Part shown: positions 2,770-18,499 of the stretch, piece by piece
Layout: every line of letters begins with the position of its first letter
Position numbering within the stretch: the stretch's first letter is position 1
Assembly (NCBI GenBank): GCA_963785235.1
Contig: CAWAUM010000001.1
Location: 1-64,000 of the forward strand
DNA: 64,000 nt
Direction of reading: 5' to 3'
From: an uncultured delta proteobacterium
Lineage (GTDB): Bacteria; Desulfobacterota; Desulfomonilia; UBA1062
Program-made: the position numbers and the translations under genes
Notes under the pieces: model-generated
What the model was told of the DNA's origin: nothing
The model's input: only the letters and a program-made list of their open reading frames with translations
Database searches by the model: none

Positions 2770-5700
2770 ATGACAGAGGTGGAGAAGACGAGAGATCAGC
2801 TTATAAAACAGCTGGATGACTTACGAGAAAGGGTCGCTGAGTTGGAAAGTGCATCTTCCGAGCTCAATTGGGCCAAAGATAATATCAATGCCCAAAAAGT
2901 TATTGACACACCCGATTTAGAATCAAAAGAAAGGAATTTTCAGGCAAGTGAATTATGCAGAGAAAGCGAAGAGAAGTTTGCCAAGGTCTTTTTGCAAAAC
3001 TCAGTCCCCATGGCCATCAGCACTATTAAGGAAGGAAGCTAGTTGATGTGAGCGATGCTTTCCTAGATCTCATGGGTCTTTCGCGTGAGGAGATAATCGG
3101 AAATACCTCAACAGGGGATAGGTTTAATTACCCCTGAGCAGAGATCGGTTGTATTAAGCGAATTCATCAAGAATGGCCGGGTGGTGAACCTCGAGTTGCA
3201 GGTATGCACAAAGGGGGGAGAGTTCAGATATGGGCTTTTCAACTCAACAAAGATACAGATAGGGCAGGATGAGTATTTACTTACAGTGGTAACGGATATC
3301 ACACAGCAAAAGCAGGCTGAAGAATCACTTCGGATGAGTGAGGATCGCTTCAGGCGCATGACGAACAATCTCCCTGGGGCGGTGTATCAATTCTATGCCC
3401 GGCCTAATGGTGAAATGGGGCTTTACTTTTTGAGCGAACGAGCTTTCGAGCTATTGGGTTTAGAAAACGAACTGCAGAATTTCTTTCCGCTTGTTACCTC
3501 CTGTATTGTCCCGGAAGACAGAGAGGCGTTTCTGGAATCGATCCAGCAAGCTGTCCGCACACTCAGCAGATGGGATCATGAGGTACGGTACATCAGCCCC
3601 GGGGGAAAAGAGATGTATATCAGGGGCCTTTCTCAACCCAGGCAGCAAAAGGATGAAATCGTTTTTGACGGGGTGTTGCTGGATGTCACTGATCAAAGAC
3701 ATACTGACCTGGCATTAAGTGAATCAGAAACCAAGTATCGTATACTACATGATACAATGAGAGATGCCTACGTAAGTGTCGACATGGATGGCCATATCAT
3801 AGAATGCAATGAAGTCTATCTGAAAATGCTTGGATATGATTGGGAAGAGATTAAAAAACTGACTTATTTAGATCTAACCCCCGAAAAATGGCATGCCTAT
3901 GAGGCTGCCATTATCCAGAATCATATACTACCCATGGGGTATTCTGACATCTACGAAAAAGAATACCGAAGGAAGGACGGTACAATTTTCCCCATCGAGT
4001 TAAGGACAATCCTTATCAGGGATGATGAGGGAAAACCAACAAGCATGTGGGCAATAGTGCGTGAAATCACTGGGCGCAAGAAGGTTGAAGAGACCCTGAA
4101 ACAAGCGATGGCTTACAACCGCAGTCTCATTGAAGCAAGCCTGGACCCGCTTGTGACCATTGGTCGGGACGGCAGGATCACCGATGTGAACATGGCCACG
4201 GAACAAGTAATAGGCTATGCAAGGGATGAGCTCATCGGAAGGGATTTTTCGGACTACTTCACCGAGCCCCAGAAGGCTAGAACCATTTATCAGCAGGTGT
4301 TCCGGGAAGGGCTGGCACGTGATTACGAGCTCGATCTTCGACATCGAGATGGGCATATCACCGAGGTGTTATATAATGCCTCAGTCTACAGGGATTCCTC
4401 CGGGCAGGTAGCCGGTGTATTTGCTGCTGCGCGGGACATATCTGAGCGCAAGACGGCCGAAAAGAGACTCCGTTCCTCTGAGAAGAAATTCTCAACAGCC
4501 TTTCATGATAATCCCGCCCCCATGGTGATAACAGATCCCGCAGACGGAAGAATAGTAGATTTCAACAGTGCGTGCGAGGCCTGGTCAGGGTACACCCGTG
4601 ATGAGGGTATTGGGCAAACCACCATTGGCCTTGGTATTTTATCTGCTGAACAAAGGGATAATCTAAATGAGGCAATTACCCGTCAAGGTAAAGCCGATTT
4701 TATAAGCATGGATTATAAGGTCAAGGACGGGGTGGTCCGTAAGATTCTCCACTCAGCAAGGTTTATAAACATTGATAATAAAACACATCTCCTTTCCCAT
4801 ATCCTTGACATTACCGAGCAAAGTAAGGCGGAGAAGGCGCTTATAGACCGACAGGCGAGGTTAAACAGTATTTTTCGTGCAGCGCCCACAGGGATCGGTG
4901 TGGCTGTCAACCGAATTCTCACCGAGGTCAATGACCGTATCTGTGAGATGACGGGATATACCCGGGAAGAGCTTCTCGGGAAATCAGTCAGCATGTTTTA
5001 TACCACCAAGGAGGAATTCGACCAGGTAGGCTTGAAGAAAAATAGACAGATGGAACAACTCGGTATGGGATCTGTGGAGACGCGCTGGAGGAGGAAAGAT
5101 GGTCAAATCATAGACATCCTTCTTACCTCAGCTGCCATTGTGTCTGGAGATCTTACCTCCGGGGTGACCTTCACTGCCCTTGACATTACCCGGAGGAAGA
5201 GGGCCGAAGATGCCCTGAGGGAGAGTGAATCCAGGTACCGCTTCCTGACAGAGAGGATAAACGACATCGTCTGGGTTGCGGATATGGATTTCAACCTTAC
5301 CTACATGAGCCCTTCTGTTGAAAGAATCATGGGGTATACGCCGCAGGAGCGCCTGGGAAAGAAGGCCTCGTCAACGATGACCCCCGAATCCGCCGCAAAA
5401 TCCTTTGATATGTTCGTCGCTGAGATCCAGAGGGTGCAGAAAAAAGGCAGTGAAACTACAAAACCCATTCTGATGGAACTTGAGTATTGTCACAAGAACG
5501 GATCAACCGTGTGGATGGAAGTGAATGCGAGCCTTTTGCTCGATGCTGACGGGCAGATTCTCGGGGCCCATGGGGTGTCGCGAGACATCAATATGCGCAA
5601 GCGGGCAGAGAACGCCCTGCGTGAAAGTGAAGCCAAGTACCGGTTTCTGACAGAGAAGATGTACGACATTATCTGGACTGCCGGCTTGGATTTCCAGCTC

Positions 5701-6594
5701 ACATACGACAGCCCTTCTGTTGAAAGGGTCTTGGGGTATACGCCACAGGAGCGTATGAGGCAAAAGGCCAGCGAAATGTTGACCCCGGAATCTTATGCTT
5801 ACGCCCTTGAGGTCCTGAGCGCAGAACTCATGCACGACCAGGAAGAGGGAGTTGATCCGGATAGAACTATCAAACTGGAACTGGAATATTATCACAAAAA
5901 CGGTTCCACGGTATGGATGGAGTGTATTGTTAGCGCTATCCGTGATCATGACGGTGAAATCAGTGGGATTCATGGTGTGTCGCGCGATATCACTCTTCGA
6001 AAACAAGTCGAGGAAGAGCTGAAGAAACACCGTTATCAGCTTGAAGAGCTCGTAAATGAACGCACAGCTGAACTCACAAAGGCATATGAATATCTGAAAC
6101 AGGAGAACGAGGCAAGGAAAGCGGGTGAATCGGCTTTAAGGGCCAGGGAAATGGAACTGGAAAAGGGCCGCCGAGAGCTTGTAGAGATGAATTCCGCACT
6201 GAAGGTTCTGCTCAAACAGAGGGAAGAGGACAAGGTAAACATGGAGATGAATATCATCTCGAATATCAAGACGTCTGTCCTGCCCTACATTGAGAAACTG
6301 GAATCATCCGGCCTTGCAGAGGGCCAGATGAGGATCAGTTCCATGATAAAATCCCTTTTGGGAGAGATCACTTCACCCTTCATCAAGAAAGTCTCCTCGG
6401 AATTCCTTGGCTTCACGCCAAACGAGATACAGGTCGCATCACTGGTCAAAGAAGGGAAGAGCTCGAAAGAAATCGCAGAGATATTAAATATTTCTCTCAA
6501 TACGGTCCATACCTACAGGTATAAGATCCGCATAAAGACTGGGCTGAAAAACAACAAGGTGAACCTGAGGTCTTACCTGCAGACCTTGGGATAG
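2770..6594 (+). CDS. Multi-PAS (about 8 PAS/PAC) one-component regulator with C-terminal LuxR/GerE HTH (two compensating indels near 3037 and 3115)
   Basis: Repeated PAS/PAC units ending in DIT/DIS-xRK-xAE; coiled coil; FTPNEIQVASLVKEGKSSKEIAEILNISLNTVHTYRYKIRIK; no H-box or HATPase. Confidence 0.88.
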
Positions 6595-6715
6595 AATGGC
6601 ACGTTCTTCTATTAGTGATATAGAGCCACTAATTTATAACCTTTCTTTCATTATAGACAGGCCTAGCCTGAGCTCGTTATAGTAACATTTATTTTTTCAA
6701 GATCAAGGATGCATC

Positions 6716-6950
6716 ATGAAAGATAAGAAATTTTGGAAGAACTTATGTGTTTACCAGGAAATCGTCAATCCTTGAGATGATGGAATTAATTGATGATTTC
6801 CGGGAAGAGGCGAGACAGGCAAAGAAAGAGATGACTGTCCTGATCATGGATGAACTGTATAACAAATGTAATCTGATCCTCCTGCAGAATAGCGTCCTTC
6901 ATCACTACACGACATCAAAGGAGTTTCATCTTACCAGCCCACAACCATAG
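6716..6950 (+). CDS. Small hypothetical protein (start uncertain, possible indel)
   Basis: ORF 6747-6950; upstream ATG at about 6716 is in another frame; no motif recognised. Confidence 0.3.
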
Positions 6951-6983
6951 AAATAAACGCACAGAATGAACAGTAGAGGGTTC

Positions 6984-8210
6984 CTATTTCCACGTTCGTT
7001 CGTCAACCAACAGCTTTGTGTCAGTTGAAAGGCTGCCTGGGTTAAGGATCTCCACGCTATCCAGTTTGACGGTACAGATCTCCTGAAAGATTTTTTCGAA
7101 TCGCGCCTGGAATTCATTTCCCAATAAGCCGGCAGCCTGGGCATCGAGCTTGGCGGTCAGGTTGTCCCGATGGCCCGAGCGGCTTATTACAAGCTGAACA
7201 ACAAGTCCGGGGAAGGTTTCACAGACCCTCTTTACCTGGCTTGGGGCAATGAACATACCGCGGACCTTCACTGCGTCGCCCACCCTTCCGGCAATGCCTG
7301 AGAGCCTTAAGCCTGTCCTGCCGCATGGGCATGGCTCCTCGATGATGCTTGAGAGGTCGCCCGTTCCGAAGCGCAGCAGGAAGAAGATGTGGTTCAATCT
7401 TGTCACAACTACCTCTCCCAGCTCTCCGGGGTTGACGGGTTCTCCCGTTGCCGGGTCCACTATCTCAACGATCACCTCCTCGCAGAGGTGCCAGCCTTTC
7501 TTGCCGGAGCACTCATAGGCCACATCCCCCACCTCTGTTGCGCCGTACATCTGAAAGGTATCGATGCCGTAGTCGGTCTCGAAGAGCTGTCTCAGAGAGG
7601 GTTGCAGGGGCTCGGCAGCGAAGCTCGCACGCTTCACCTTGAAATCTCTTGCAAAGTCATAGCCCATCTCCGAGGCCTTGGTGATGATTGCCATGAGGAA
7701 GCTCGGGGTCCCGGTGTAGCCCGTTATGTTCAGGTCCTTTATGAGCTGGACCTGCTGCTGGGTGGCAGAAGATCCCGAGGGAACTACGGTTGCCCCAACC
7801 TTGTTAAGCCCTCCATGGAAGGTGAGGCCTGCCGCTACCATGTGGTAGGAAAAGGCATTGAGCACGATGTCTCCATGTGCGAAGCCTGCTGCCTTGTAGG
7901 CCCTGGCCCAAAGCGGGTCATGGGAACCCAGGTGAGGTTCATAAACCGGCCCCGGAGAGGTGAAGATACGCTCGATAACAGCATTCGGATCAGCCAGCCC
8001 TCCATAGGGAGGCTCCTTTGCCTCCATGTCCACAAGCTGCTCCCGTGAAATTATAGGGAGCTTCACAAGGTCATGGACGGTCTGAATATCGGTCGGCTTC
8101 AAAGAGCGATCCTGGAGGACCGATCTGAGCTTTGGTGAACGCTCAAAGCCCAGCCGGACCATCTCGGAGAGCCTCTTGTTCTGGTATGTCTCCCGCTCAT
8201 GGCGGGTCAT
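6984..8210 (-). CDS. Phenylacetate-CoA ligase (PaaK)-family adenylate-forming enzyme
   Basis: NAFSYH, YTGTPSF, FAAEPL, QMYGATEVG, EEVIVEIVDP, LRFGTGDLS, CPCGRT, GRVGDAVKVRGMFI. Confidence 0.85.
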   Translation of the reverse strand: MTRHERETYQNKRLSEMVRLGFERSPKLRSVLQDRSLKPTDIQTVHDLVKLPIISREQLVDMEAKEPPYGGLADPNAVIERIFTSPGPVYEPHLGSHDPLWARAYKAAGFAHGDIVLNAFSYHMVAAGLTFHGGLNKVGATVVPSGSSATQQQVQLIKDLNITGYTGTPSFLMAIITKASEMGYDFARDFKVKRASFAAEPLQPSLRQLFETDYGIDTFQMYGATEVGDVAYECSGKKGWHLCEEVIVEIVDPATGEPVNPGELGEVVVTRLNHIFFLLRFGTGDLSSIIEEPCPCGRTGLRLSGIAGRVGDAVKVRGMFIAPSQVKRVCETFPGLVVQLVISRSGHRDNLTAKLDAQAAGLLGNEFQARFEKIFQEICTVKLDSVEILNPGSLSTDTKLLVDERTWK

Positions 8211-8288
8211 GGTTTCAAGATCGTCTAGATAATGTGTTCACATCAAACCCCCTCTCACCCTACGATTCATTCATCACTAATCATTCAC

Positions 8289-9101
8289 CTACAGCCACCG
8301 CTTTCTGCGCTTATATGACTTCACGTCCCGGTATGACCTGGCTGTGCCGCCTGCGCTTACCCCGAGGTAGAACTCCTTCACGTCGGGATTCTCCTTCAGG
8401 TTGTCCGCCTCTCCCTCCATCACGACACGGCCATTCTCCATGACATAGCCATAGTGGGCGATCTGCAGTGCCATATTGGCGTTCTGCTCTACCAGGACGA
8501 TGGTGGTCCCCTGTTCTTCGTTGATCCGACGGATGATCCGGAAGATCTCTTTCACAACGAGCGGCGCAAGTCCAAGCGATGGCTCATCTAAAAGGAGCAG
8601 TTTGGGGTGGGCCATGAGTGCCCTGCCCATAACCACCATCTGGAGTTCGCCCCCGCTGCAGTAACCGGCCAGTGCCTTTCTGCGTTTCATCAGGGCAGGG
8701 AAGTAGCCATATACAAGATCCAGGTCCTTCTTGTAGGGCTTGGTCCAGCGTGTTGCCGTCCCGACCTTCAGATTCTCTTCAATGGTGAGGTACTTGAAGG
8801 GCTGCCTTCCCTCCAGGACCTGGATGATGCCCAGGCGGGTAAGCTCCTCGGGAGACAGGTTCTGTACGAGCTCGCCGGCGTATATGATATTGCCGTCCGT
8901 CACCTTGCCGTTTTCCGGCTTGAGCAGGCCGGATATGGCCTTGAGCGTGGTGGTCTTGCCCGCCCCGTTGCTCCCGAGCAACGATACGATGCGGCCCCTT
9001 TGTACATTGAGCGACACCCCCTTGAGCACCTGGATGACATCCGAATAGACAACGCTGATGTTGTTGAGCTGGAGCAGGGTATCGGTAGTAGAGTCTTCCA
9101 T
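8289..9101 (-). CDS. Liv-type ABC transporter ATP-binding subunit (LivF-like)
   Basis: GSNGAGKTT, CSGGELQM, LLLLDEPSLGLAP, VEQNA. Confidence 0.92.
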   Translation of the reverse strand: MEDSTTDTLLQLNNISVVYSDVIQVLKGVSLNVQRGRIVSLLGSNGAGKTTTLKAISGLLKPENGKVTDGNIIYAGELVQNLSPEELTRLGIIQVLEGRQPFKYLTIEENLKVGTATRWTKPYKKDLDLVYGYFPALMKRRKALAGYCSGGELQMVVMGRALMAHPKLLLLDEPSLGLAPLVVKEIFRIIRRINEEQGTTIVLVEQNANMALQIAHYGYVMENGRVVMEGEADNLKENPDVKEFYLGVSAGGTARSYRDVKSYKRRKRWL

Positions 9102-9111
9102 CACATGAACC

Positions 9112-10183
9112 TCAGTAGGAGAACGGCCATAGCCGGAAGGTGGACCGTACGATGCGCCACAGTTCTGCGAGCCCCTTTGGCTCGAACAGGATAAACAGGA
9201 CAATAGCCAGACCAAAGGCAAACTCGCGCAGTGATGCCATGTTGAGCCCGAACCCGCTCAGTGCGGAGATGTTCATCATGGCATCCGTTGCAAAGCGCAA
9301 AACCTCGTTGAGGCCCGTGATGAAGATTGCCCCGAAGATGGAGCCCGGGATGCTGCCGAGGCCCCCGATAATGACCATGGCGATATATTCCACAGAGAGC
9401 CCCAGGGTAAAGGGCTCGGTGGATATGCTCTTCATGTAGTATGCCCACAAAGCGCCTGCAAAGCCTGCATAGAAGGAGCTGATGGCAAAGGCGAGCAGCT
9501 TGTAGAAAAAGATGGGTATACCCATGCCCTCAGCTGCCCGGTCATTGTCGCGGATGGCAATAAAGGCCCTGCCATAGCGTGTTCTCATGAGGTTGGATGC
9601 AACAAAGGTGAGGCCTACCAGACATATGAAGATCAGGTAGAAGAATCGCGTATCCGAGTTGATGGCAAGGCCGAACAGGTTTGCCTCAGGCAGCATGATG
9701 CCCATTGTGCCCTTGGTGAGGCTGTCCCAGTGCACAAGGATGTATTCGATGATAAACTGGCCTGCCAGCGTTGCGATGGTGAGGTAGAGCCCTTTGAGCC
9801 TGCCCGAGGGGATGCCGAAGATCATGCCCACAATAGCGGTGATGAGCCCGGACGCAGGAATCGAGATCCACAAGGGAAGGCCAACCGTAGTGGCCAGGAT
9901 GGCCCCGGCATATGCCCCTACGCCGAAGAAGGCCCCGTGGCCCAGCGAGATCTGGCCTGTGAACCCGATGAGGATATTCAGGCCCAAGGCGGCAATGGCC
10001 GCGATCCCCGTCATGTTGATGACATAGAGCAGATAGGGGGAGCTGATGAAGTGGCACTACCCCGAAGAGGAAGGCGAGCCCGATGAAGGCCCACATGCGG
10101 CCGAAATCCGTCTCGAAGATGGTGAGTTCCTGGCCGTAGTGTTCCTTGTAGTTCCCGCACGGGTGGAATTGAAGCCGCTTCAT
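9112..10183 (-). CDS. Liv-type ABC transporter permease (LivM-like; frameshift near 10050)
   Basis: GFTGQISLGHGAFFGVGAY, RLKGLYLTIATLA, GRAFIAIRDND, IIGGLGSIPG. Confidence 0.9.
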
Positions 10184-10184
10184 T

Positions 10185-11063
10185 CTACACCCTCTCGATC
10201 TCAACCAGGCCGAAGAGGCCATAGGGCTTGATGAGCAGGATGACGACCAGGACGATATACGGGATCACATCGCGCAGTGACGGAGAGATGTATCCGCTCG
10301 TGAAGGTCTCCAGCAGCCCGATGATGATCCCGCCGATAATGGCCCCGCCGATGCTGTCCAGTCCGCCCAGTATGACCACCGGAAAGACCTTGAGCCCGAG
10401 CGAACTGATCTCGTGCACATTGATGCCGTTGATGGTCCCGAGCATAATGCCGCTCATGCCTGCGACCATGGCCGCTATGGCCCAGGACAGGGCAAAGACC
10501 TTCTTCACGTGGACGCCTAAGGACATGGCGGCAGTCTGGTTGTCGGCCACGCTCCGCATATATATGCCCTGGGGCGAGTACTTGAAGAAGAGCCCGAAGA
10601 GCACCAGAAAGATCACTCCCAGCAGCGAGGAGGCCACATATACCGGAGGGATGTAGATAGTGCCCATTTGGATGGCAAGGGCGCCTGGCAGGAAATCGGG
10701 GTAGGTCTGGAGGTTGCCCCCGAAGAAGAACAGGAGCAGTCCCTTGAACATGGAAGCCAGACCTACGGTGAGCATGATGACAAAGATGAGCGACTCGCCG
10801 ATCAAGGGCCGCAGGAAGAGGCGCTCCACAACGAATCCGAGAACGAAGCTTCCGGAAAGGGTGATGAGGAAGGCGAGGATCACCGGGACCTTGATCCACG
10901 ATACCAGCACGAGGAAGAAATATGCGCCCATGGCCATGAGCTGGCCGTGGGCGAAGTTCAGCACGGACGACGACTTGAAGATCATGACAAAGCCCAGGGC
11001 CGACAGGCCGTAGAGAAGTCCGACGCTCAGGCCGTTTATGAGGAGCTGTAAGAAGAATTCCAT
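10185..11063 (-). CDS. Liv-type ABC transporter permease (LivH-like)
   Basis: ALGFVMIFKSSSVLNFAHG, VVILGGLDSIGGA, KPYGLFG. Confidence 0.92.
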   Translation of the reverse strand: MEFFLQLLINGLSVGLLYGLSALGFVMIFKSSSVLNFAHGQLMAMGAYFFLVLVSWIKVPVILAFLITLSGSFVLGFVVERLFLRPLIGESLIFVIMLTVGLASMFKGLLLFFFGGNLQTYPDFLPGALAIQMGTIYIPPVYVASSLLGVIFLVLFGLFFKYSPQGIYMRSVADNQTAAMSLGVHVKKVFALSWAIAAMVAGMSGIMLGTINGINVHEISSLGLKVFPVVILGGLDSIGGAIIGGIIIGLLETFTSGYISPSLRDVIPYIVLVVILLIKPYGLFGLVEIERV

Positions 11064-11089
11064 GTATTCTCTCCTGGTTCGTGCATTTC

Positions 11090-13042
11090 CTAAAACACAG
11101 TTATTACGCGGGCTATTGTCTCGACCATGCCCACCTGTCCATCGCGGTAGCGGACCTTGCCCTTGACAGGCAGTTCCGTCAGTCCTGTGTACATGGCCTC
11201 GATCATGGGCAGGTAGAGGCCGTAGACAAAGCGCCTCCTTACCTTGCCGGTGCGGGTGAGTTCCTCGTCATCGGCATCGAGGAGCTTGTAGAGCAGAATG
11301 AACCGTTTTATCTTCATGGGCCCTGGCAACTGGTCATTGACTGTTTTCACCTCTTCAAGGATGAGTTGCTCGACCTCGGGCCGCCCTGACAGGTCCGTAT
11401 AGGTGGTGTACGGGATCATACGGTCCTCGGCCCAGTTGCCCACATTGCCAAGATCGATGTTGATGAGCGCCGTGATGAATGGCCGGCCCTCACCGAAGAT
11501 GATGGTTTCTTTAATATATAAGGAAAATTTAAGTCTGGTCTCGATGAAGTCAGGGGAGAAGGCATTGCCTTCCTTATCCCTTATGATATCCTGCTTCCGT
11601 CCGATTATCACCAGGTGGCCGTCGTCGTCGAGGTAACCGGCATCCCCTGTCAGGAACCATCCGTTCTCAAATGCCTTTTCCGTTGATTCATAATCATTGT
11701 AGTAGCCTGCGAAGACCGAGTCGGAAAGCAGCATGACCTCCTGGTCTTTGGATATCTTCACCTCGGTGCCGGGCAGGGCCTTGCCCACGGTCTCGGGTTT
11801 CACCTCGTCATCGGGCTGGGCCTGGAAGATGCCGCAGGTCTCTGTGAGGCCGTAACACTGCTTCAGGTTCAATCCGCAGGCCCTGAAAAAGCGGATCACG
11901 TCAGGGCTGATTGGGTGGCCGCCGGTGTAGGCGCTGATGAACCCCGAGCAGCCTACTCGGTCGAGGAGGGGATTGAACACGAGCGCCTTAGCCATACCAT
12001 TGAGGAAACGCAGGCCAAGAGGTAGGGGCTTCCCGGCTGATTTCAGGTCCACACATGCCGTGCCGATCCGTTCGGCATAAGTGAACATGGCGCGGTTGAT
12101 GGGACCGGCATCGTCGATCTTCACCCTGACCTTTGAAGCCAGGTCCTCCCAGAAGCGAGAAGAGGAGATGAGGAGGCCCGGCCCGATATCCCGGAAGTCG
12201 GCCGTCACGGTCTCGGGCGTCTCGGGGAAGTTCATGGTCATCCCGCCGAGCAAGGCCACTCCGAATCCCCACATCTGGTCCACGATCCAGGCGGGTGGGG
12301 TCATGGAGAGCCAGTTGGACCCGATACCCACCGGATTGGATTCGATCCACTTCCTGCCCATTGCCGCATAGTTCCGGTGGGAGAGCATGGCCAGTTTTGA
12401 GATGCCCGTGGTGCCCGATGTCAGGATCATATGGCACACATCGTCCGGCTTTCCCTTGGCAATCTCTTCGGCGAAAAGACCCGGGTGCCTGGTCTCGTGC
12501 CTTTTCCCGAGGTCAAGCAGGTCTTTATAGCTCATGAGGAGCTTGTTATCTCTATACCCCCTCATGCCAGTGGGGTCCACATAGATGATCACCTGGACGT
12601 GCGGGAGTTTGCCCTGCTGCTCCAACAGCTTGTCTACCTGCTCCTGGTCCTGGACCAGGATGAAGCGTGCCTGGATGCGGTTCAGTGCCGATGTGAGCTC
12701 GCTCGCTACGGCAGAGGTGAAGAGGTTCAGGCTGACCGCGCCGAAGGCCTGAGAGCCGAGCTGGCTGAACAGCCACTCCGGGTGGTTGTTCATGATCATG
12801 CCCACATGGTCGTGACGATTGAGTCCTAAGGCCTTGAGCCCAAGCCCGGTGTACTTCACATAAGATAGGTAATCTACCCAGGTGAAGGCCTGCCAGACAC
12901 CATAGGTCTTTTCCCGGATGGCGATGTGTGTGTTGCCGAGTAGCAAGGCCTGATGATCAAGGGCCTGGGGAAGGGTGCAGCTGGAAATCTTGTCCAGGTG
13001 AGCCTGGCTGACCTTGGTTATAGTCTTTCCGTTGTGGCCCAT
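11090..13042 (-). CDS. Long-chain acyl-CoA synthetase-like AMP-binding enzyme
   Basis: LTSGTTGISK, QCYGLTE, GWFLTGDAG, ELTRTGKVRR. Confidence 0.88.
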   Translation of the reverse strand: MGHNGKTITKVSQAHLDKISSCTLPQALDHQALLLGNTHIAIREKTYGVWQAFTWVDYLSYVKYTGLGLKALGLNRHDHVGMIMNNHPEWLFSQLGSQAFGAVSLNLFTSAVASELTSALNRIQARFILVQDQEQVDKLLEQQGKLPHVQVIIYVDPTGMRGYRDNKLLMSYKDLLDLGKRHETRHPGLFAEEIAKGKPDDVCHMILTSGTTGISKLAMLSHRNYAAMGRKWIESNPVGIGSNWLSMTPPAWIVDQMWGFGVALLGGMTMNFPETPETVTADFRDIGPGLLISSSRFWEDLASKVRVKIDDAGPINRAMFTYAERIGTACVDLKSAGKPLPLGLRFLNGMAKALVFNPLLDRVGCSGFISAYTGGHPISPDVIRFFRACGLNLKQCYGLTETCGIFQAQPDDEVKPETVGKALPGTEVKISKDQEVMLLSDSVFAGYYNDYESTEKAFENGWFLTGDAGYLDDDGHLVIIGRKQDIIRDKEGNAFSPDFIETRLKFSLYIKETIIFGEGRPFITALINIDLGNVGNWAEDRMIPYTTYTDLSGRPEVEQLILEEVKTVNDQLPGPMKIKRFILLYKLLDADDEELTRTGKVRRRFVYGLYLPMIEAMYTGLTELPVKGKVRYRDGQVGMVETIARVITVF

Positions 13043-13051
13043 GATAAGCCC

Positions 13052-13858
13052 CTATGCCCCTTCCTGAGTTTCCAGGCCCAGGTCCGTGGTGTCCCCGAGA
13101 TAGGCCCTGATGACATCGGGGTGGTCCTGGATCTCTTCCGGCTTTCCCTCGGCGAGTTTTTCACCGAAGTTGAGCACAATGACACGCTCGGAGATGCTCA
13201 TGACAATGGACATGTCATGCTCCACCAGGATCATGGTCTGGCCCCACCCGTCGTGCAGCTCTAAAAGGAAGCGAACCATATCCTCCTTTTCTTCCAGGGT
13301 CATGCCTGCAAAAGGCTCGTCCAGAACCAGCAGTCTGGGTTCCGAGGCCAAGGCCCTGCCAAGTTCCACACGCTTGCGCAGGCCATAGGGCAGAGAGCCA
13401 ACAAGCTCCTTGCGGATGGACTGCATTTCAAGAAAGTCGATGATCTCTTCCAATATCTCGTGATGTCTGATCTCTTCTGTTTTGACTGAAGGGGAATACA
13501 GGCACGCCAGGGCGAAGTTGTATGATGATCTGGTATGGCGGGCCAGCAGCATGTTCTGGAGAACGGTCATACCCGGGAAGAGCTCGATGTTCTGAAAGGT
13601 CCTTCCGATACCCAGCGAGGTGAGTTTGTGGGTGTGCATATGTACAATGCTCTGGCCGTTAAAGATAATATCGCCGCTTGTCGCCTTATAAAATCCCGTG
13701 ATGCAGTTCAGCAGGCTTGTCTTGCCCGCGCCGTTGGGCCCTATGATTGCCACGAGTTCGCCGGTATGGACCGACAGGTCCACATTCTTGACCGCCTGGA
13801 TGCCGCCGAAGGCGAGAGACAGGCTTTTGACCTCAAGCTCAGCCTGCCTCATCGCCAT
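13052..13858 (-). CDS. Liv-type ABC transporter ATP-binding subunit (LivG-like)
   Basis: GPNGAGKTS, RTFQN, LPYG, LDEPFAG, VEHDM, VIRAYLG. Confidence 0.92.
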   Translation of the reverse strand: MAMRQAELEVKSLSLAFGGIQAVKNVDLSVHTGELVAIIGPNGAGKTSLLNCITGFYKATSGDIIFNGQSIVHMHTHKLTSLGIGRTFQNIELFPGMTVLQNMLLARHTRSSYNFALACLYSPSVKTEEIRHHEILEEIIDFLEMQSIRKELVGSLPYGLRKRVELGRALASEPRLLVLDEPFAGMTLEEKEDMVRFLLELHDGWGQTMILVEHDMSIVMSISERVIVLNFGEKLAEGKPEEIQDHPDVIRAYLGDTTDLGLETQEGA

Positions 13859-13916
13859 CTTGTCGGCGGAGAATATTCGTGGATGCCCTCGAAATGCCCT
13901 CACAAAGAATCCTTTG

Positions 13917-15125
13917 CTACTTCAGTATCTTGATCTTGTCCTTGCCCGGGGTGAAGAAGTTGGTCAGGGGTGTAAAGGTCTCGTTCTCATGGATCTGGAC
14001 TATCCTGCCCTTGAAGGAAGCGCCATGGTCGTCCTTGGTGTAAGTAATATTTGGCACTAATCCTCCGAAGTCCTCATTGTTAAAGGTTTCCATGGCTTTG
14101 TTGATGTTCTCTGGTGTGATTTTTCCGAACTTTTCCTGTGCCCTTATGAATGCCCTCTCCATGATCATGCCCACGACTACGCCCTCCCAGTAGGCGGTGT
14201 CAAAGGAGTCGACGGTCTTGTAGCGCTTCCAGAGTTCTTCCATGATCTTCATGCCAGGGGCTTTGTCCGTGGGCAGGCCGCCGCAGAACTGCATCTTCAC
14301 GCGATCTTTTATAAGTCCTTTACCATTCTTGAAGAAGTCGGGGTCCGTGGATGTCCAGGTGCCTATGAAGATGGGGTTGTAGCCGATGCGGTCCGCGCTC
14401 TTGAGGGTGCTGATGATGGCTGCTGGCAGCATCTGCATGAATACATACTGGGCGCCCTTCTGCTTGAGCCGTAAGAGTTCGGTGGTCAGGTCTACGGTCT
14501 GGGGCGGGAATTCCTCAATTGAAACAAGATCGATGTTTTTTGTCTTGGCGTATTCCTTGCTCGGCTCGTGGATGGAGCGGCCGTAGGGGTTGTTGTAGGT
14601 CAGCAGGCCGATCTTCGGTGCGCCGGGGTCCTTATGGACGGCAGCGATGTACTCCATGACCGCCTGACAGTCGAGCTTGTAGTTGCCGAAAGGCAGGTAC
14701 ATGTAGTCAACCGGCGGCTGCAGAAGCTCCCAGGCCGTGGAGTAGTTGATGGCCGGGATCTTGAACTGCTGCAGCAGAGGTTTTGCCTGCATGCCTTCTG
14801 CCGCCCCCCAGGTGGCTATCATATCCACCTTGTCCTGCATGGCGAATTTCCTCACCGCAGCCACGGCCTCGGATGCCTTATATGCAGTATCCACGGTAAT
14901 CATCTGGATCTTGTTGCCTTTGACGCCGCCCTTGACCTCATTGACGTACTTAAAGTAATCCTGCTGTCCCTTGGCATGGTACTGGCCCCAGGTGGATGCC
15001 GGGCCGGTGAGGTTGATGGCAGCGCCCACCTTGATATCCTTGGCATGCGCGATTGGCGCAGTAATGCAGCAGACTGCAAGCAACAACCCCCCCATAATCA
15101 ATGCTGAACTTACTCTCCCCTTCAT
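13917..15125 (-). CDS. Liv-family (PBP type 1) ABC substrate-binding protein
   Basis: Signal peptide ending AHA; IKVGAAINLTGPAS, NEVKGGVKG, DTAY, YNNPYGR; SD GGAGG before ATG 15125. Confidence 0.88.
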   Translation of the reverse strand: MKGRVSSALIMGGLLLAVCCITAPIAHAKDIKVGAAINLTGPASTWGQYHAKGQQDYFKYVNEVKGGVKGNKIQMITVDTAYKASEAVAAVRKFAMQDKVDMIATWGAAEGMQAKPLLQQFKIPAINYSTAWELLQPPVDYMYLPFGNYKLDCQAVMEYIAAVHKDPGAPKIGLLTYNNPYGRSIHEPSKEYAKTKNIDLVSIEEFPPQTVDLTTELLRLKQKGAQYVFMQMLPAAIISTLKSADRIGYNPIFIGTWTSTDPDFFKNGKGLIKDRVKMQFCGGLPTDKAPGMKIMEELWKRYKTVDSFDTAYWEGVVVGMIMERAFIRAQEKFGKITPENINKAMETFNNEDFGGLVPNITYTKDDHGASFKGRIVQIHENETFTPLTNFFTPGKDKIKILK

Positions 15126-15189
15126 AACACTACCTCCCTTACAGTTTTTTCTGTCCATCACACCTGTGATGGGGTACCGCTTCATGAAC

Positions 15190-15237
15190 AAAAAAAAGCC
15201 GCAGGTAGACAAGTACGGTCTACCTACGGCTTTTTTT
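15190..15237 (-). terminator. Intrinsic terminator (attenuator) in the 5' leader of the ABC operon
   Basis: GCCGTAGGTAGAC-cgtactt-GTCTACCTGCGGC (13 bp, one G-U) followed by T8, about 65 nt upstream of the first ATG. Confidence 0.9.
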
Positions 15238-15271
15238 GACTAGATCTAAAAAAGCTTAAACGCAGGCAGAC
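15218..15271 (-). promoter_or_regulatory. Antiterminator hairpin overlapping the terminator 5' arm
   Basis: GTCTGCCTGCG (15271-15261) pairs with CGTAGGTAGAC (15228-15218); the inner GCTTTTTT/AAAAAAGC helix extends it. Confidence 0.8.
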
Positions 15272-15325
15272 CTAATCAAAAAAGAAAAACCCGAAAGAAT
15301 TATTTGTCAAAATTCTCGTTGCCAT
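15272..15325 (-). CDS. Phe-rich leader peptide MATRILTNNSFGFFFFD
   Basis: ATG GCA ACG AGA ATT TTG ACA AAT AAT TCT TTC GGG TTT TTC TTT TTT GAT TAG; 5 Phe in the last 7 codons; the stop abuts the antiterminator arm. Confidence 0.8.
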   Translation of the reverse strand: MATRILTNNSFGFFFFD

Positions 15326-15334
15326 AGACTAGGG

Positions 15335-15363
15335 CCTTTAAAGAAAACTCCCTAAGAAGTCAA
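15335..15363 (-). promoter_or_regulatory. Candidate sigma70 promoter of the leader
   Basis: TTGACT-N17-TAAAGG; the -10 element is imperfect. Confidence 0.45.
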
Positions 15364-15420
15364 GGGAAAACTGGCAAGAGGTGTAAACTGACGATGCGAT
15401 ATGGTTAGGGTTTTAGCTGA

Positions 15421-15468
15421 CCCGAACAATTCAGTGAGTTTCCGAAGAAACTCACTGAATTGTTCGGG
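15421..15468. repeat. Perfect 22-bp inverted repeat with 4-nt loop
   Basis: CCCGAACAATTCAGTGAGTTTC-cgaa-GAAACTCACTGAATTGTTCGGG. Confidence 0.9.
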
Positions 15469-15497
15469 CTAAGAAAAGATTTCTATCAAAAATCCTC

Positions 15498-16391
15498 TCA
15501 TATCACCGATGGTATCGACCGGTAGTGTTCCTGGCGCTGCTTTTCCGGTAAGGCGAGAAAGGTGTTGATGAGGCGCAGCATCTCTTCCCTGTTTTCATCG
15601 AGCCTGCCGAAGACCTGGATATAGTTGTTTGAATGATCGCAGGCGAGGACTGCAGGCGTTGGATCCAGGGCGGCAATTAGGTCTCTGAGTTCCATAACCG
15701 TGCCTTCAGCGGTCTGTTCAATGAACTCGCCGGCATGTATTTTTTCCATGAGTTTCGACATGGGGTGGATCCACAACCGCCGCACCCGGATAAAGTGGGG
15801 CTTTACCTCATTGATTACACAGGCCGAGCCTTTAACGTGATCTTCCCACAGTGCCTGTCCGCCCAGCCCAAGAAGGAAGTAGAAAGACAACTCCATGCCC
15901 GAGGTCATGGCCTTTTCCCCGGCATCGATGAGCTGTTTCTGGGTGGTACCCTTCTTGTGCAGCGAAAGCACCGCATCCGAACCGCTCTCCATCCCCACAT
16001 GGACCCGGTCTAGGCCCGCATCATGGATGGCAAGGAGCTCCGCTTGCGTCTTCTTGGCCAGGCTTGATGCCCTGGCATAAGCCGTAACCCGATTCACGAA
16101 AGGGAACTTCGCCCTGAGGTGTTTCAGGACTTCTACGAGAAAGTCCGTGGGCAGATGGAGCGGGTTTGCATCGCCTAAAAATGCGGTCTTGAAGATGTCT
16201 CCGTACATTTCATGCAGGGCGTCGATGTCTTTGATCACCTCGCCCACGGTACGCTCGGAGTAGGGGGTATCGAAATAATCGTAAATACCGCAGAACAGGC
16301 ACCGGTTCCAGTTGCAACCGCGTACGGTCCTGATGAGAAGGCTCCTGGCCTCGCTGGGCGGTCTGATCACGAGATGTTCGGGGACATGCAT
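15498..16391 (-). CDS. Radical SAM protein (RPPSE-type, function unknown)
   Basis: IRPPSEARSLL, CNWNRCLFC (CX3CX2C), FLGDAN, HVGMESGSD, DHSNN. Confidence 0.88.
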   Translation of the reverse strand: MHVPEHLVIRPPSEARSLLIRTVRGCNWNRCLFCGIYDYFDTPYSERTVGEVIKDIDALHEMYGDIFKTAFLGDANPLHLPTDFLVEVLKHLRAKFPFVNRVTAYARASSLAKKTQAELLAIHDAGLDRVHVGMESGSDAVLSLHKKGTTQKQLIDAGEKAMTSGMELSFYFLLGLGGQALWEDHVKGSACVINEVKPHFIRVRRLWIHPMSKLMEKIHAGEFIEQTAEGTVMELRDLIAALDPTPAVLACDHSNNYIQVFGRLDENREEMLRLINTFLALPEKQRQEHYRSIPSVI

Positions 16392-16453
16392 GTTGCTGTT
16401 ATAGGGCGAGGAAGTCCCGGGGTCAAGGAGTTGAGAGTTCTAGGCTATAAATC

Positions 16454-16879
16454 CTAAGCGGAATCATCACCTGTGGTGAAACTACTGGTGTAATCCGAAC
16501 TGAGGGACCTGCCATGAGTGTCTTTCAGCTGGGTTTTTATTGTCACGGTATACGTTGTGAGCTTGTCCAGCTTAGCCGTTGGTGTAAATGATACGGCTAT
16601 ACCATACGAGGAAACCGTTCCAGCAACAGATTTTCCTTTGTCATCCGTCAAAAGGATTGTTGCGTTAGTTGCAGTCGTTTTATCAATGTCATTTGAGAAC
16701 GTAATTGATATTGTAACGCTTTGTGAAGTAGCCGTTGCTCCGTTGGCCGGTATGATATCGTACACCTTGAAAGCATTGCTGTTTTTGTCATCGAACACAT
16801 CACACGATAAGAGGAATACGGAACACAGCACGGTTACCATAAGAAGGACGATCAGGTTTTTGATAAGTTCATTTTTCAT
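16454..16879 (-). CDS. Lipoprotein with bacterial Ig-like (Big_5-type) domain
   Basis: Lipobox LLSC; PANGAT...ISITFSNDID...FTPTAKL...TTYTVTI...SFTTG. Confidence 0.8.
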   Translation of the reverse strand: MKNELIKNLIVLLMVTVLCSVFLLSCDVFDDKNSNAFKVYDIIPANGATATSQSVTISITFSNDIDKTTATNATILLTDDKGKSVAGTVSSYGIAVSFTPTAKLDKLTTYTVTIKTQLKDTHGRSLSSDYTSSFTTGDDSA

Positions 16880-16995
16880 TGTCTGCTCTCCTCCATTATA
16901 AAATAAAAAAAATGTTTTAGGGCCTGATAAGTATAAATTAAATTTTTAAAAATTGCATGATGAATTTCTCTATGAATATGAGTTACAAGATACCC

Positions 16996-17409
16996 ATGGA
17001 AATCTTATACACCCCAATCGGCATCATGCACTGTGAGCTCTTTGACCCGGACACAGCGCCCAAGTTTTATACCGAATCCTCCATCAAAGGGACTATCGAG
17101 ATCTTTGAGGCGTATGAGGAAGGACTTGCCGGGCTCAATGAATACGACCATATCATGGTCTTCTTCCACTTCCACCGCTCTGCGGGTTATAATCTCATGC
17201 AGAAGAGACGTGGCGTGGGTCAGTTGCGCGGTGTGTTCAGCCTTTGCTCGCCAAACAGGCCCAATGGCATCGGTATGTCGATCCTTAAGCTTATTAAAAT
17301 AGAGGGTAACATGCTTTATGTGGAAAACGTCGACCTGCTTGACGGCACGCCCATCCTCGACATAAAGCCTTACAAACCGCAGGATTACCCGTGCAGGACA
17401 AAGGACTGA
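16996..17409 (+). CDS. tsaA: TrmO/TsaA-family tRNA t6A37 N6-methyltransferase-like protein
   Basis: TPIGIMH, FHFH, GVFSLCSPNRPNGIG, VDLLDGTPILDIKPY. Confidence 0.85.
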   Translation: MEILYTPIGIMHCELFDPDTAPKFYTESSIKGTIEIFEAYEEGLAGLNEYDHIMVFFHFHRSAGYNLMQKRRGVGQLRGVFSLCSPNRPNGIGMSILKLIKIEGNMLYVENVDLLDGTPILDIKPYKPQDYPCRTKD

Positions 17410-17621
17410 AGCCCTGAGCCGCCCGAATATGGATTGAATTTTTTCCCCTGATGTGGTTGTGTAATACACTTAGAGATGGAAACAAGGCTAGAGGTGTGCT
17501 CATGAAAGGCACCTATCAAGGATCATTATAGGACAGACATCCGCCAAGATAAGGCCTAAAGAACCATCTTACAAACAATGGAAGTACCTGCATCATGATA
17601 AGGATCGCAAGGAGATAATCA

Positions 17622-18499
17622 ATGGAATACGATATGCCGCTCTACAGGCCGCCTTCAGAGGCTCGCTCTCTTATCTTCCAGGTTACGTTAGGCTGTTCGT
17701 GGAACAAATGTATGTTCTGTGCCATGTACAAGACCAAGGATTTCCTGGTGAGGCCTTTCGATGAGATCGAGAAGGAAGTCATTGAGATGGCGAGGCATTA
17801 CCCCCAGACGCGCAAGATCTTCCTGGCTGACGGCGATCCTCTGGCTGCACCAACGGATTTCCTTATCAGGGTGCTCGACCTCATGAACCAGCGGTTCCCC
17901 AACCTGGAGCGCATCAGCACCTATGCTGGCCCCACCAACCTTAAGGACAAGACAATTGAAGAACTAAAGGAGTTCAAGGCACGCAAGCTCGATGTCCTCT
18001 ACCTCGGCATCGAGACCGGTCATGATCCCCTCCTGAAAAGGATCAAGAAGGGGGCAAAGGCCTCTTTGATCATAGAAGTCTGCAGGAAGGCAAAAGATGC
18101 CGGCCTGCGCATGTCCACCTTCATCATCCTTGGCCTGGGTGGAGTAGGGGGCAGTTATGACCATGCCAAGGATTCTGCCCGGGTGGCAAATGCCATCGAC
18201 CCGAACTTTCTGGCAACGCTCACCCTTATGCTCGGACCCTACGAGAAGATCTACGAGCAGGAGATGATGGGTGACGGCTTCAAGCTCATTGACAAGAAGC
18301 AGTCCCTGCAGGAGCTCAGGTGGTTCGTGGAGGACCTTACCTCACCGACTGCAAGTTCGGCTCCGAGCACGCATCCAACTATTTGCCCATCAGCGGGACC
18401 CTGCCCCGGGACAAAGAGGAGATCCTCAGGCTCATCGACAAGGCGCTTGACGACACCTCCTCGAAGATGATCAGGCCCGAATGGGCCCGGGGGCTGTGA
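17622..18499 (+). CDS. Radical SAM protein (RPPSE-type paralog; frameshift near 18340)
   Basis: LYRPPSEARSLI, CSWNKCMFC, FLADGD, YLGIETG; the C-terminus resumes as SEHASNYL...EWARGL and stops at 18499. Confidence 0.88.

Follow-up and report, generated by a model that had tools for sequence, protein, structure and literature searches.

A phenylalanine-codon leader ahead of a Liv-type importer and CoA-ligase operon suggests phenylalanine supply from scavenged acids in an uncultured anaerobe

Introduction

What would an anaerobe gain by placing an ABC importer and CoA ligases under the control of phenylalanine (Phe) supply? The question is raised by an operon in the first 64,000 nucleotides of contig CAWAUM010000001.1 of an uncultured delta proteobacterium (Desulfomonilia, GTDB lineage UBA1062; GenBank assembly GCA_963785235.1), a stretch referred to below, at its full length, as the window. 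Seven genes run on the minus strand from 15125 to 6984 and encode, in order, a periplasmic solute-binding protein (SBP), LivG, an acyl-CoA synthetase, LivH, LivM, LivF and a PaaK-like ligase. A preliminary description of this DNA had placed the seven genes, in the same order, behind a Phe attenuator, and had read them as an anabolic system that imports and activates phenylacetate or a related compound when Phe is scarce. All seven genes are present as described.

The analysis reported here indicates that control of the operon by Phe shortage is very likely, and suggests that this uncultured anaerobe rebuilds Phe from scavenged acids such as phenylacetate. The operon is probably a system for the uptake and CoA activation of an acid that is induced by Phe shortage. 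The anabolic reading is supported in part. Its regulatory premise gains from leaders, from the indolepyruvate:ferredoxin oxidoreductase (IOR) genes iorAB and from a transaminase; phenylacetate is a putative substrate. Of the two ligases, it is the FadD-like synthetase and not the PaaK-like enzyme that is conserved in the operon.

A Leader-Peptide Attenuator Precedes the Operon

The region upstream of the SBP gene contains the following elements, of which the promoter is a prediction only.

15335..15363, minus strand: possible promoter, with TTGACT at 15363..15358, a 17-nt spacer and TAAAGG at 15340..15335
15272..15325, minus strand: leader frame MATRILTNNSFGFFFFD, 17 codons and a stop; 5 of its final 7 sense codons specify Phe
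15261..15272, minus strand: antiterminator strand GGUCUGCCUGCG, whose first base is the final base of the leader stop; predicted to pair with the terminator's 5' arm
15231..15247, minus strand: sequestering strand AGAUCUAGUCAAAAAAA, predicted to pair with the leader end and to mask the antiterminator strand when the ribosome is absent
15190..15230, minus strand: intrinsic terminator, a 13-bp stem (15230..15198) with a 7-nt loop and U8

A promoter scan of the window did not list the candidate at 15335..15363, its second hexamer being poor; a TTGAC box occurs at the equivalent position in related loci. Downstream, three mutually exclusive folds are predicted, namely the terminator (-25.6 kcal/mol, z -7.4), the antiterminator (-28.9 kcal/mol) and the sequestering hairpin (-20.0 kcal/mol, z -4.2), each of which, taken alone, lies far below shuffled controls. 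The marks by which a leader-peptide attenuator is assigned from sequence, an amino-acid-run frame, an intrinsic terminator and an alternative pairing, are all found here, and the attenuator of the preliminary description is borne out by the leader frame (15325..15272) and the terminator stem (15230..15198) with its U8. These features mark the switch as a leader-peptide attenuator of the classical kind, whose family Rfam does not include; the Phe_leader covariance model was unmatched in an Rfam search of window positions 6000-17500 at E <= 1.

When charged tRNA-Phe is ample, a ribosome would reach the leader stop and cover GGUCUGCC, so that the terminator would form and transcription would end. 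A ribosome stalled on the Phe codons would leave GGUCUGCC free; pairing of this strand with the terminator's 5' arm would let the polymerase read into the operon. The enterobacterial leader-peptide attenuators pheL-pheA and pheM-pheST (Rfam Phe_leader) likewise combine a short frame bearing a run of Phe codons with terminator and antiterminator hairpins that exclude one another, and there too read-through depends on where the ribosome stands. In contrast to these, the present switch has no Rfam match and belongs to Desulfomonilia- and Syntrophales-like metagenome-assembled genomes (MAGs); its antiterminator strand lies directly against the leader stop codon or overlaps it, and its target is an importer and CoA-ligase operon rather than pheA or pheST.

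The whole genome (3.9 Mb) was scanned for biased short frames ahead of strong terminators. Among the 31 matches only two credible leaders were found, that of the Phe operon and one before iorA, and MATRILTNNSFGFFFFD is the sole Phe-run leader in the genome with a terminator behind it. Ten other Phe-run frames or biased short frames before terminators were inspected and rejected; none was leader-like, and several lay inside or antisense to coding sequence.

Conservation of the Leader and Its Pairings

A search of 61 genomes, the source genome included, yielded 28 loci, and the Phe-run leader is found in 23 of them; of the other five, two are truncated at contig edges and three belong to a sister family. 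A set of 80 public loci, with SBPs 66-93% identical, were drawn from uncultured MAGs labeled as Desulfomonilia, Syntrophales or Smithellaceae. Under strict criteria (a start codon, 8-45 codons, at least four Phe in nine codons and a stop adjoining the conserved strand), a Phe-rich leader frame precedes the SBP gene in 76 of the 80. Weaker Phe-rich frames occupy the same place in the four misses: two fall just under the Phe density (L129, L130), one has fewer Phe (L082) and one carries a variant strand motif (L078). The leader takes two forms, one ending in FGFFFFD-stop and the other in FFSFFSFFGEVCLL.S-stop; apart from the Phe codons and the strands that pair, the two have little in common.

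The pairings were compared in an alignment of 48 sequences, comprising the window and 47 of the 80 public loci; the remaining 33 were left out because the automatic cut-out missed the terminator or because they were near-duplicates. The paired fraction is 97.3% for the terminator, in which 5 of 11 pairs show compensatory changes. For the antiterminator, whose partners form nine pairs, 97.9% of cells are paired, compared with 22-49% for a slid partner, and two pairs have changed on both sides. In each case the covariation score was reached by none of 500 shuffles. The core of the sequestering helix, GGUC:GAYC, is 87.9% paired, and covariation in the 48 sequences lends this helix no support. This conservation of a Phe-codon leader together with switchable hairpins strongly supports the premise, already put forward in the preliminary description, that the operon is controlled by Phe.

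A second terminator-like hairpin lies directly after the first and before the SBP start in many Syntrophales loci (L074, L076, L086, L097 and others). Among public sequencing runs, none had half of the sampled words, and the contigs that could be placed came from relatives only. The contigs of one RNA library reach 90-95% likeness over 28 of 30 bins and are no evidence of transcription.

Aromatic Leaders Ahead of IOR Genes

The other credible leader of the genome (contig 10; locus L001, about 2995-3150) reads MFEKTATRAYYYGFYFRKGVCP, is followed by a terminator and stands before iorA. Among relatives, a leader rich in aromatic codons, mostly Tyr and Phe, precedes iorA in 26 of 30 loci, three being without one and one truncated. 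The operon so preceded has the composition iorAB-paaK-ACT-Liv in the source genome. In the close relative G002 it comprises iorA (738 bits; cut-off 651), iorB (223; 237), paaK (639; 646, nearly canonical), an ACT protein gene, an SBP gene, LivHMGF and a split paaK. The genes iorA and iorB, which the preliminary description had named as a check on its reading, are present in the source genome, iorA in two frames, and a near-canonical paaK lies beside them. The second paaK of this operon falls into two frames that overlap, with the break at about profile position 243 (contig 10, about 150896-152117; G002, locus L175, 9010-10291). Because the same split occurs in the source genome and in G002, it may be real rather than an assembly error.

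No leader precedes the main iorA in five Syntrophales-type genomes with the Phe operon. Two of these five have an ior paralogue that is preceded by a four-Trp frame (WWWW) and a terminator (L188, about 250-393; L184), and in G061, the annotated one of the two, the paralogous iorA and iorB have a TRAP carboxylate importer behind them. Of 51 Syntrophales genomes sampled, 9 yielded such a paralogue, and a run of three to five Trp codons with a terminator precedes it in 8 of the 10 loci examined (L190-L198 among them). Three Syntrophales genomes have the main iorA about 25 kb from the Phe operon on one contig (L178, L181 and L182, compared with L098, L121 and L128). Co-occurrence of iorA with the operon was set aside as evidence: iorA is found in 25 of 27 SBP-positive genomes but also in 32 of 34 SBP-negative ones, and is uninformative.

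Judging by these leaders, IOR genes and acid importers are apparently induced by shortage of Phe, of Tyr and Phe, or of Trp. Control of IOR and acid-uptake genes by aromatic amino-acid shortage therefore points to synthesis and not to breakdown.

The Operon and Its Constant Unit

The genes behind the Phe leader are arranged as follows.

13917..15125, minus strand: SBP, periplasmic solute-binding protein, 402 aa with a signal peptide; Pfam Peripla_BP_6, E 2.4e-49
13052..13903, minus strand: LivG-type ATPase, with ABC_tran and BCA_ABC_TP_C
11090..13042, minus strand: FadD/ACSL-like acyl-CoA synthetase, 650 aa, between livG and livH; AMP-binding, E 1.2e-54
10185..11063, minus strand: LivH-type permease, by family profile matches
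9112..10183, minus strand: LivM-type permease, in two frames in this assembly
8289..9101, minus strand: LivF-type ATPase, by family profile matches
6984..8210, minus strand: divergent PaaK-family adenylate-forming ligase, 408 aa

The intergenic gaps measure 9-78 nt, and terminator-like sites within the run show no excess (7 found, 7.9 expected by chance). By family, the Liv-type (HAAT) importer is complete, with a Peripla_BP_6 SBP, two BPD_transp_2 permeases and two ABC ATPases. None of the seven proteins, LivF, LivG, LivH and LivM included, reaches an NCBIfam equivalog cut-off.

The full order of seven genes is kept in 16 of 20 relatives' loci; two of the others end at a contig edge and two are without the PaaK-like gene. 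The gene order is likewise conserved among the 80 public loci, in which the PaaK-like gene follows livF in 47 and is absent from 13 where the contig continues, the remaining 20 being undecidable; in the 13, the first long frame after livF lies on the opposite strand. Because the PaaK-like gene is missing from 13 of 60 decidable loci, it is excluded from the constant unit, which is the leader, SBP, LivG, the synthetase, LivH, LivM and LivF. In every complete related locus the synthetase lies between livG and livH. It consists of an AMP-binding domain (PF00501, E 1.2e-54) and a C-terminal PF23562 domain, and no solved structure matched it at E <= 1e-20.

The best solved relative of the PaaK-like ligase is PaaK 2y4o (E 1.7e-46), and the genome has four genes of the PaaK family, of which this one is the most divergent. 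A stretch of contig 1 at about 130531-134115 carries a third member of the family (464 bits), followed by a 585-aa frame that resembles aldehyde:ferredoxin oxidoreductase, its N-terminus judged by eye; a 2-oxoacid oxidoreductase and an ACT protein are encoded a few kb away. A second Liv-type cluster, with a 609-aa synthetase (37% identical), is located on contig 10 of the same genome (about 97095-105582), and no leader frame was seen before that cluster (about 97-105.6 kb).

Ligand Selection by the Solute-Binding Protein

The operon shares ABC architecture and Pfam families with the LivJ/LivK-LivHMGF system of E. coli, from which it differs in the low identity of its SBP to LivJ and LivK (17-22%), in the missed equivalog cut-offs and in its extra ligase genes. 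By alignment with LivJ and LivK, the pocket positions of the SBP are W46, W106, W132, Y181 and W257, and such a Trp/Tyr-lined pocket suits any phenyl ligand, Phe included. Two LivJ residues, Tyr202 and Glu226, hold the backbone of the bound amino acid; in the SBP family their equivalents are Leu and Trp. Because the valine-bound 3lkb also lacks both residues, the pocket positions do not separate amino acid from acid, and the replacement was rejected as a mark of acid binding. An AlphaFold model of the SBP (pLDDT 81.8) was compared with solved structures using Foldseek and proved no guide to the ligand, its top matches being a mixture of binders of valine, fatty acid, pyroglutamate, leucine, phenylpyruvate and hydroxybenzoate. 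Phenylacetate is therefore unproven as the ligand, this analysis not distinguishing it from other phenyl acids or from Phe.

A Proposed Route to Phe and Its Rivals

The best-supported reading, and one that we consider reasonably likely, is that the operon serves Phe supply through an aryl-acid/IOR route. The Liv-type importer would take up a phenyl-substituted carboxylic acid, most likely phenylacetate and possibly omega-phenylalkanoates. The embedded FadD-like synthetase, joined by the PaaK-like ligase where present, would convert the acid to its CoA thioester. IOR would then carboxylate phenylacetyl-CoA reductively to phenylpyruvate, from which a transaminase would form Phe; a HisC-type transaminase is encoded next to pheA.

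Several observations weigh against this route. The genome encodes chorismate mutase-prephenate dehydratase (pheA) and chorismate synthase, pheA and the aro genes being among the checks named in the preliminary description; a de novo route to Phe is present, and salvage is thus optional rather than required. The ior operon has an importer of its own and two paaK genes, so that a second uptake system stands beside the one proposed. The synthetase resembles long-chain fatty-acid ligases, its best NCBIfam match being FadD11 (252 bits; cut-off 950), and the PaaK-like ligase, absent from 13 of 60 decidable loci, scores 196.7 bits against TIGR02155, short of the cut-off of 646.3. The closest solved structure to the SBP, 3lkb, is valine-bound (25% identity), and LivJ, LivK and LivHMGF of E. 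coli are annotated as Phe transporters. The three sister-family loci (SBP 57-61% identical) have different upstream genes and no leader. Finally, livM is frameshifted in this assembly.

The E. coli annotation bears directly on an alternative in which the importer takes L-phenylalanine itself, as a LivK-type system would, and both ligases serve something else. Import of Phe would fit the same control, since an operon switched on by Phe shortage suits a Phe importer equally; the E. coli liv genes carry the label 'branched chain amino acid/phenylalanine ABC transporter', the valine-bound match of the SBP is in keeping with an amino-acid ligand, and the aromatic pocket positions would accept Phe as readily as any phenyl compound. 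What this alternative leaves without a role is the synthetase, kept between livG and livH in every complete locus, and the ior operons behind aromatic leaders point to an acid route instead. The Leu and Trp at the backbone-holding positions also disfavor it, weakly, as 3lkb lacks those residues too. Uptake of Phe itself is judged unlikely. General uptake and activation of fatty acids or branched-chain acids, with the Phe leader serving some indirect purpose, appears still less probable. The FadD11-like family match of the synthetase, the fatty-acid binding protein 4n03 as the second-best structural match of the SBP, and the existence of leaderless orthologues and of a leaderless paralogous cluster of Liv and synthetase genes would all suit it. 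However, a leader of Phe codons alone, kept across two divergent lineage groups, argues for a Phe-related product, there is no known link between fatty-acid import and benefit under Phe shortage, and a PaaK-family ligase is usual in the operon (47 of 60 decidable loci).

Aryl-acid uptake could also serve the degradation of phenylacetate or other aromatic acids for energy, and the Liv-type importers beside CoA ligases of Rhodopseudomonas palustris are catabolic (PMC3223731). Induction on Phe shortage is the wrong logic for breakdown, the ior operons too carry starvation-type leaders, and no BamA-type ring-cleavage hydrolase scored above cut-off in the 93% complete genome (best 93 bits; cut-off 464). 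A catabolic role is therefore considered very improbable.

A different kind of objection is that the operon is dead in this strain, livM being broken. One extra base at about 10052 places livM in two frames, so that the subunit genes are not all intact here; the base is absent from four relatives and from contigs of three DNA runs (X1, X2, X4), livM is intact in relatives' loci, and the frameshift occurs in this assembly only. However, the three runs hold related strains and not this one, and the remaining operon genes are all intact. On another contig, iorA and one paaK are likewise split here and whole in relatives, which suggests indel errors in the assembly. An assembly error is as likely an explanation of the split as a real lesion, and loss of the operon's function in this strain seems improbable.

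Comparison with Known Systems

A conversion of phenylacetate to Phe is reportedly known from rumen work, which the preliminary description had invoked. In Methanococcus maripaludis, aryl acids feed a second aromatic amino-acid pathway (Porat et al., as cited in PMC4162585). The chemistry proposed here is alike, leading from aryl acid to CoA thioester, IOR carboxylation and transamination, and IOR genes are present here as well. In contrast to M. maripaludis, the organisms are bacteria, the pathway is deduced from regulation only, and the route gains a dedicated ABC importer in which a FadD-like synthetase is embedded. In Bacteroides, IOR adjoins an AMP-forming arylacetate-CoA ligase, and an anabolic role has been suggested (PMC13285125); iorAB lies beside a PaaK-type ligase there as here. 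The direction of the reaction is backed in the present case by starvation-type leaders on the ior operon and on a separate uptake operon.

The binding proteins of COG0683 in R. palustris mostly have aromatic or fatty-acid ligands and adjoin matching CoA ligases (PMC3223731). Two such units, CouP with p-coumarate-CoA ligase and RPA3723-3725 beside pimA, likewise combine a COG0683 SBP with a CoA ligase as an acid uptake and activation unit misannotated as branched-chain amino-acid transport (PMC3223731). Whereas those systems are catabolic and substrate-induced, the present operon appears to be controlled by amino-acid shortage and has its ligase inside the transporter operon.

No paper that ties ior, paaK or this operon to leader peptides or T-boxes was found in literature searches. 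The direction of bacterial IOR and arylacetate-CoA ligase, breakdown or synthesis, is disputed, and the wiring of the leaders would answer this question for the lineages studied here. Three leader families are added (Phe, Tyr/Phe and Trp), of which the Rfam search covered the Phe leader only, with no match.

More speculatively, the leaders may belong to a three-branch salvage regulon in syntrophic Desulfobacterota-type anaerobes, a proposal that we hold tentatively and with some doubt. Separate Phe, Tyr/Phe and Trp attenuators would turn on the genes for importers, CoA ligases and IOR paralogues, and aryl acids released by neighboring fermenters would serve as starting material for aromatic amino acids. 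The synthetase of the Phe branch would work with the transporter, trapping phenylacetate or omega-phenylalkanoates as CoA thioesters on entry. The findings as a whole suggest that, for energy-poor syntrophs of sediments, peat and digesters, cross-feeding on aryl acids lowers the cost of biosynthesis.

Upstream Neighborhood

A long near-perfect palindrome at 15413-15477 lies between the leader and an upstream radical-SAM gene. It may belong to a palindromic repeat family of this genome; microRNA-like Rfam matches on it were dismissed as chance matches. The radical-SAM gene (window 15498-16391) encodes 297 aa and is found upstream of the operon in most family-level relatives, not in Syntrophales loci. 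A 35%-identical paralogue of it is encoded nearby on the other strand (window 17622-18470).

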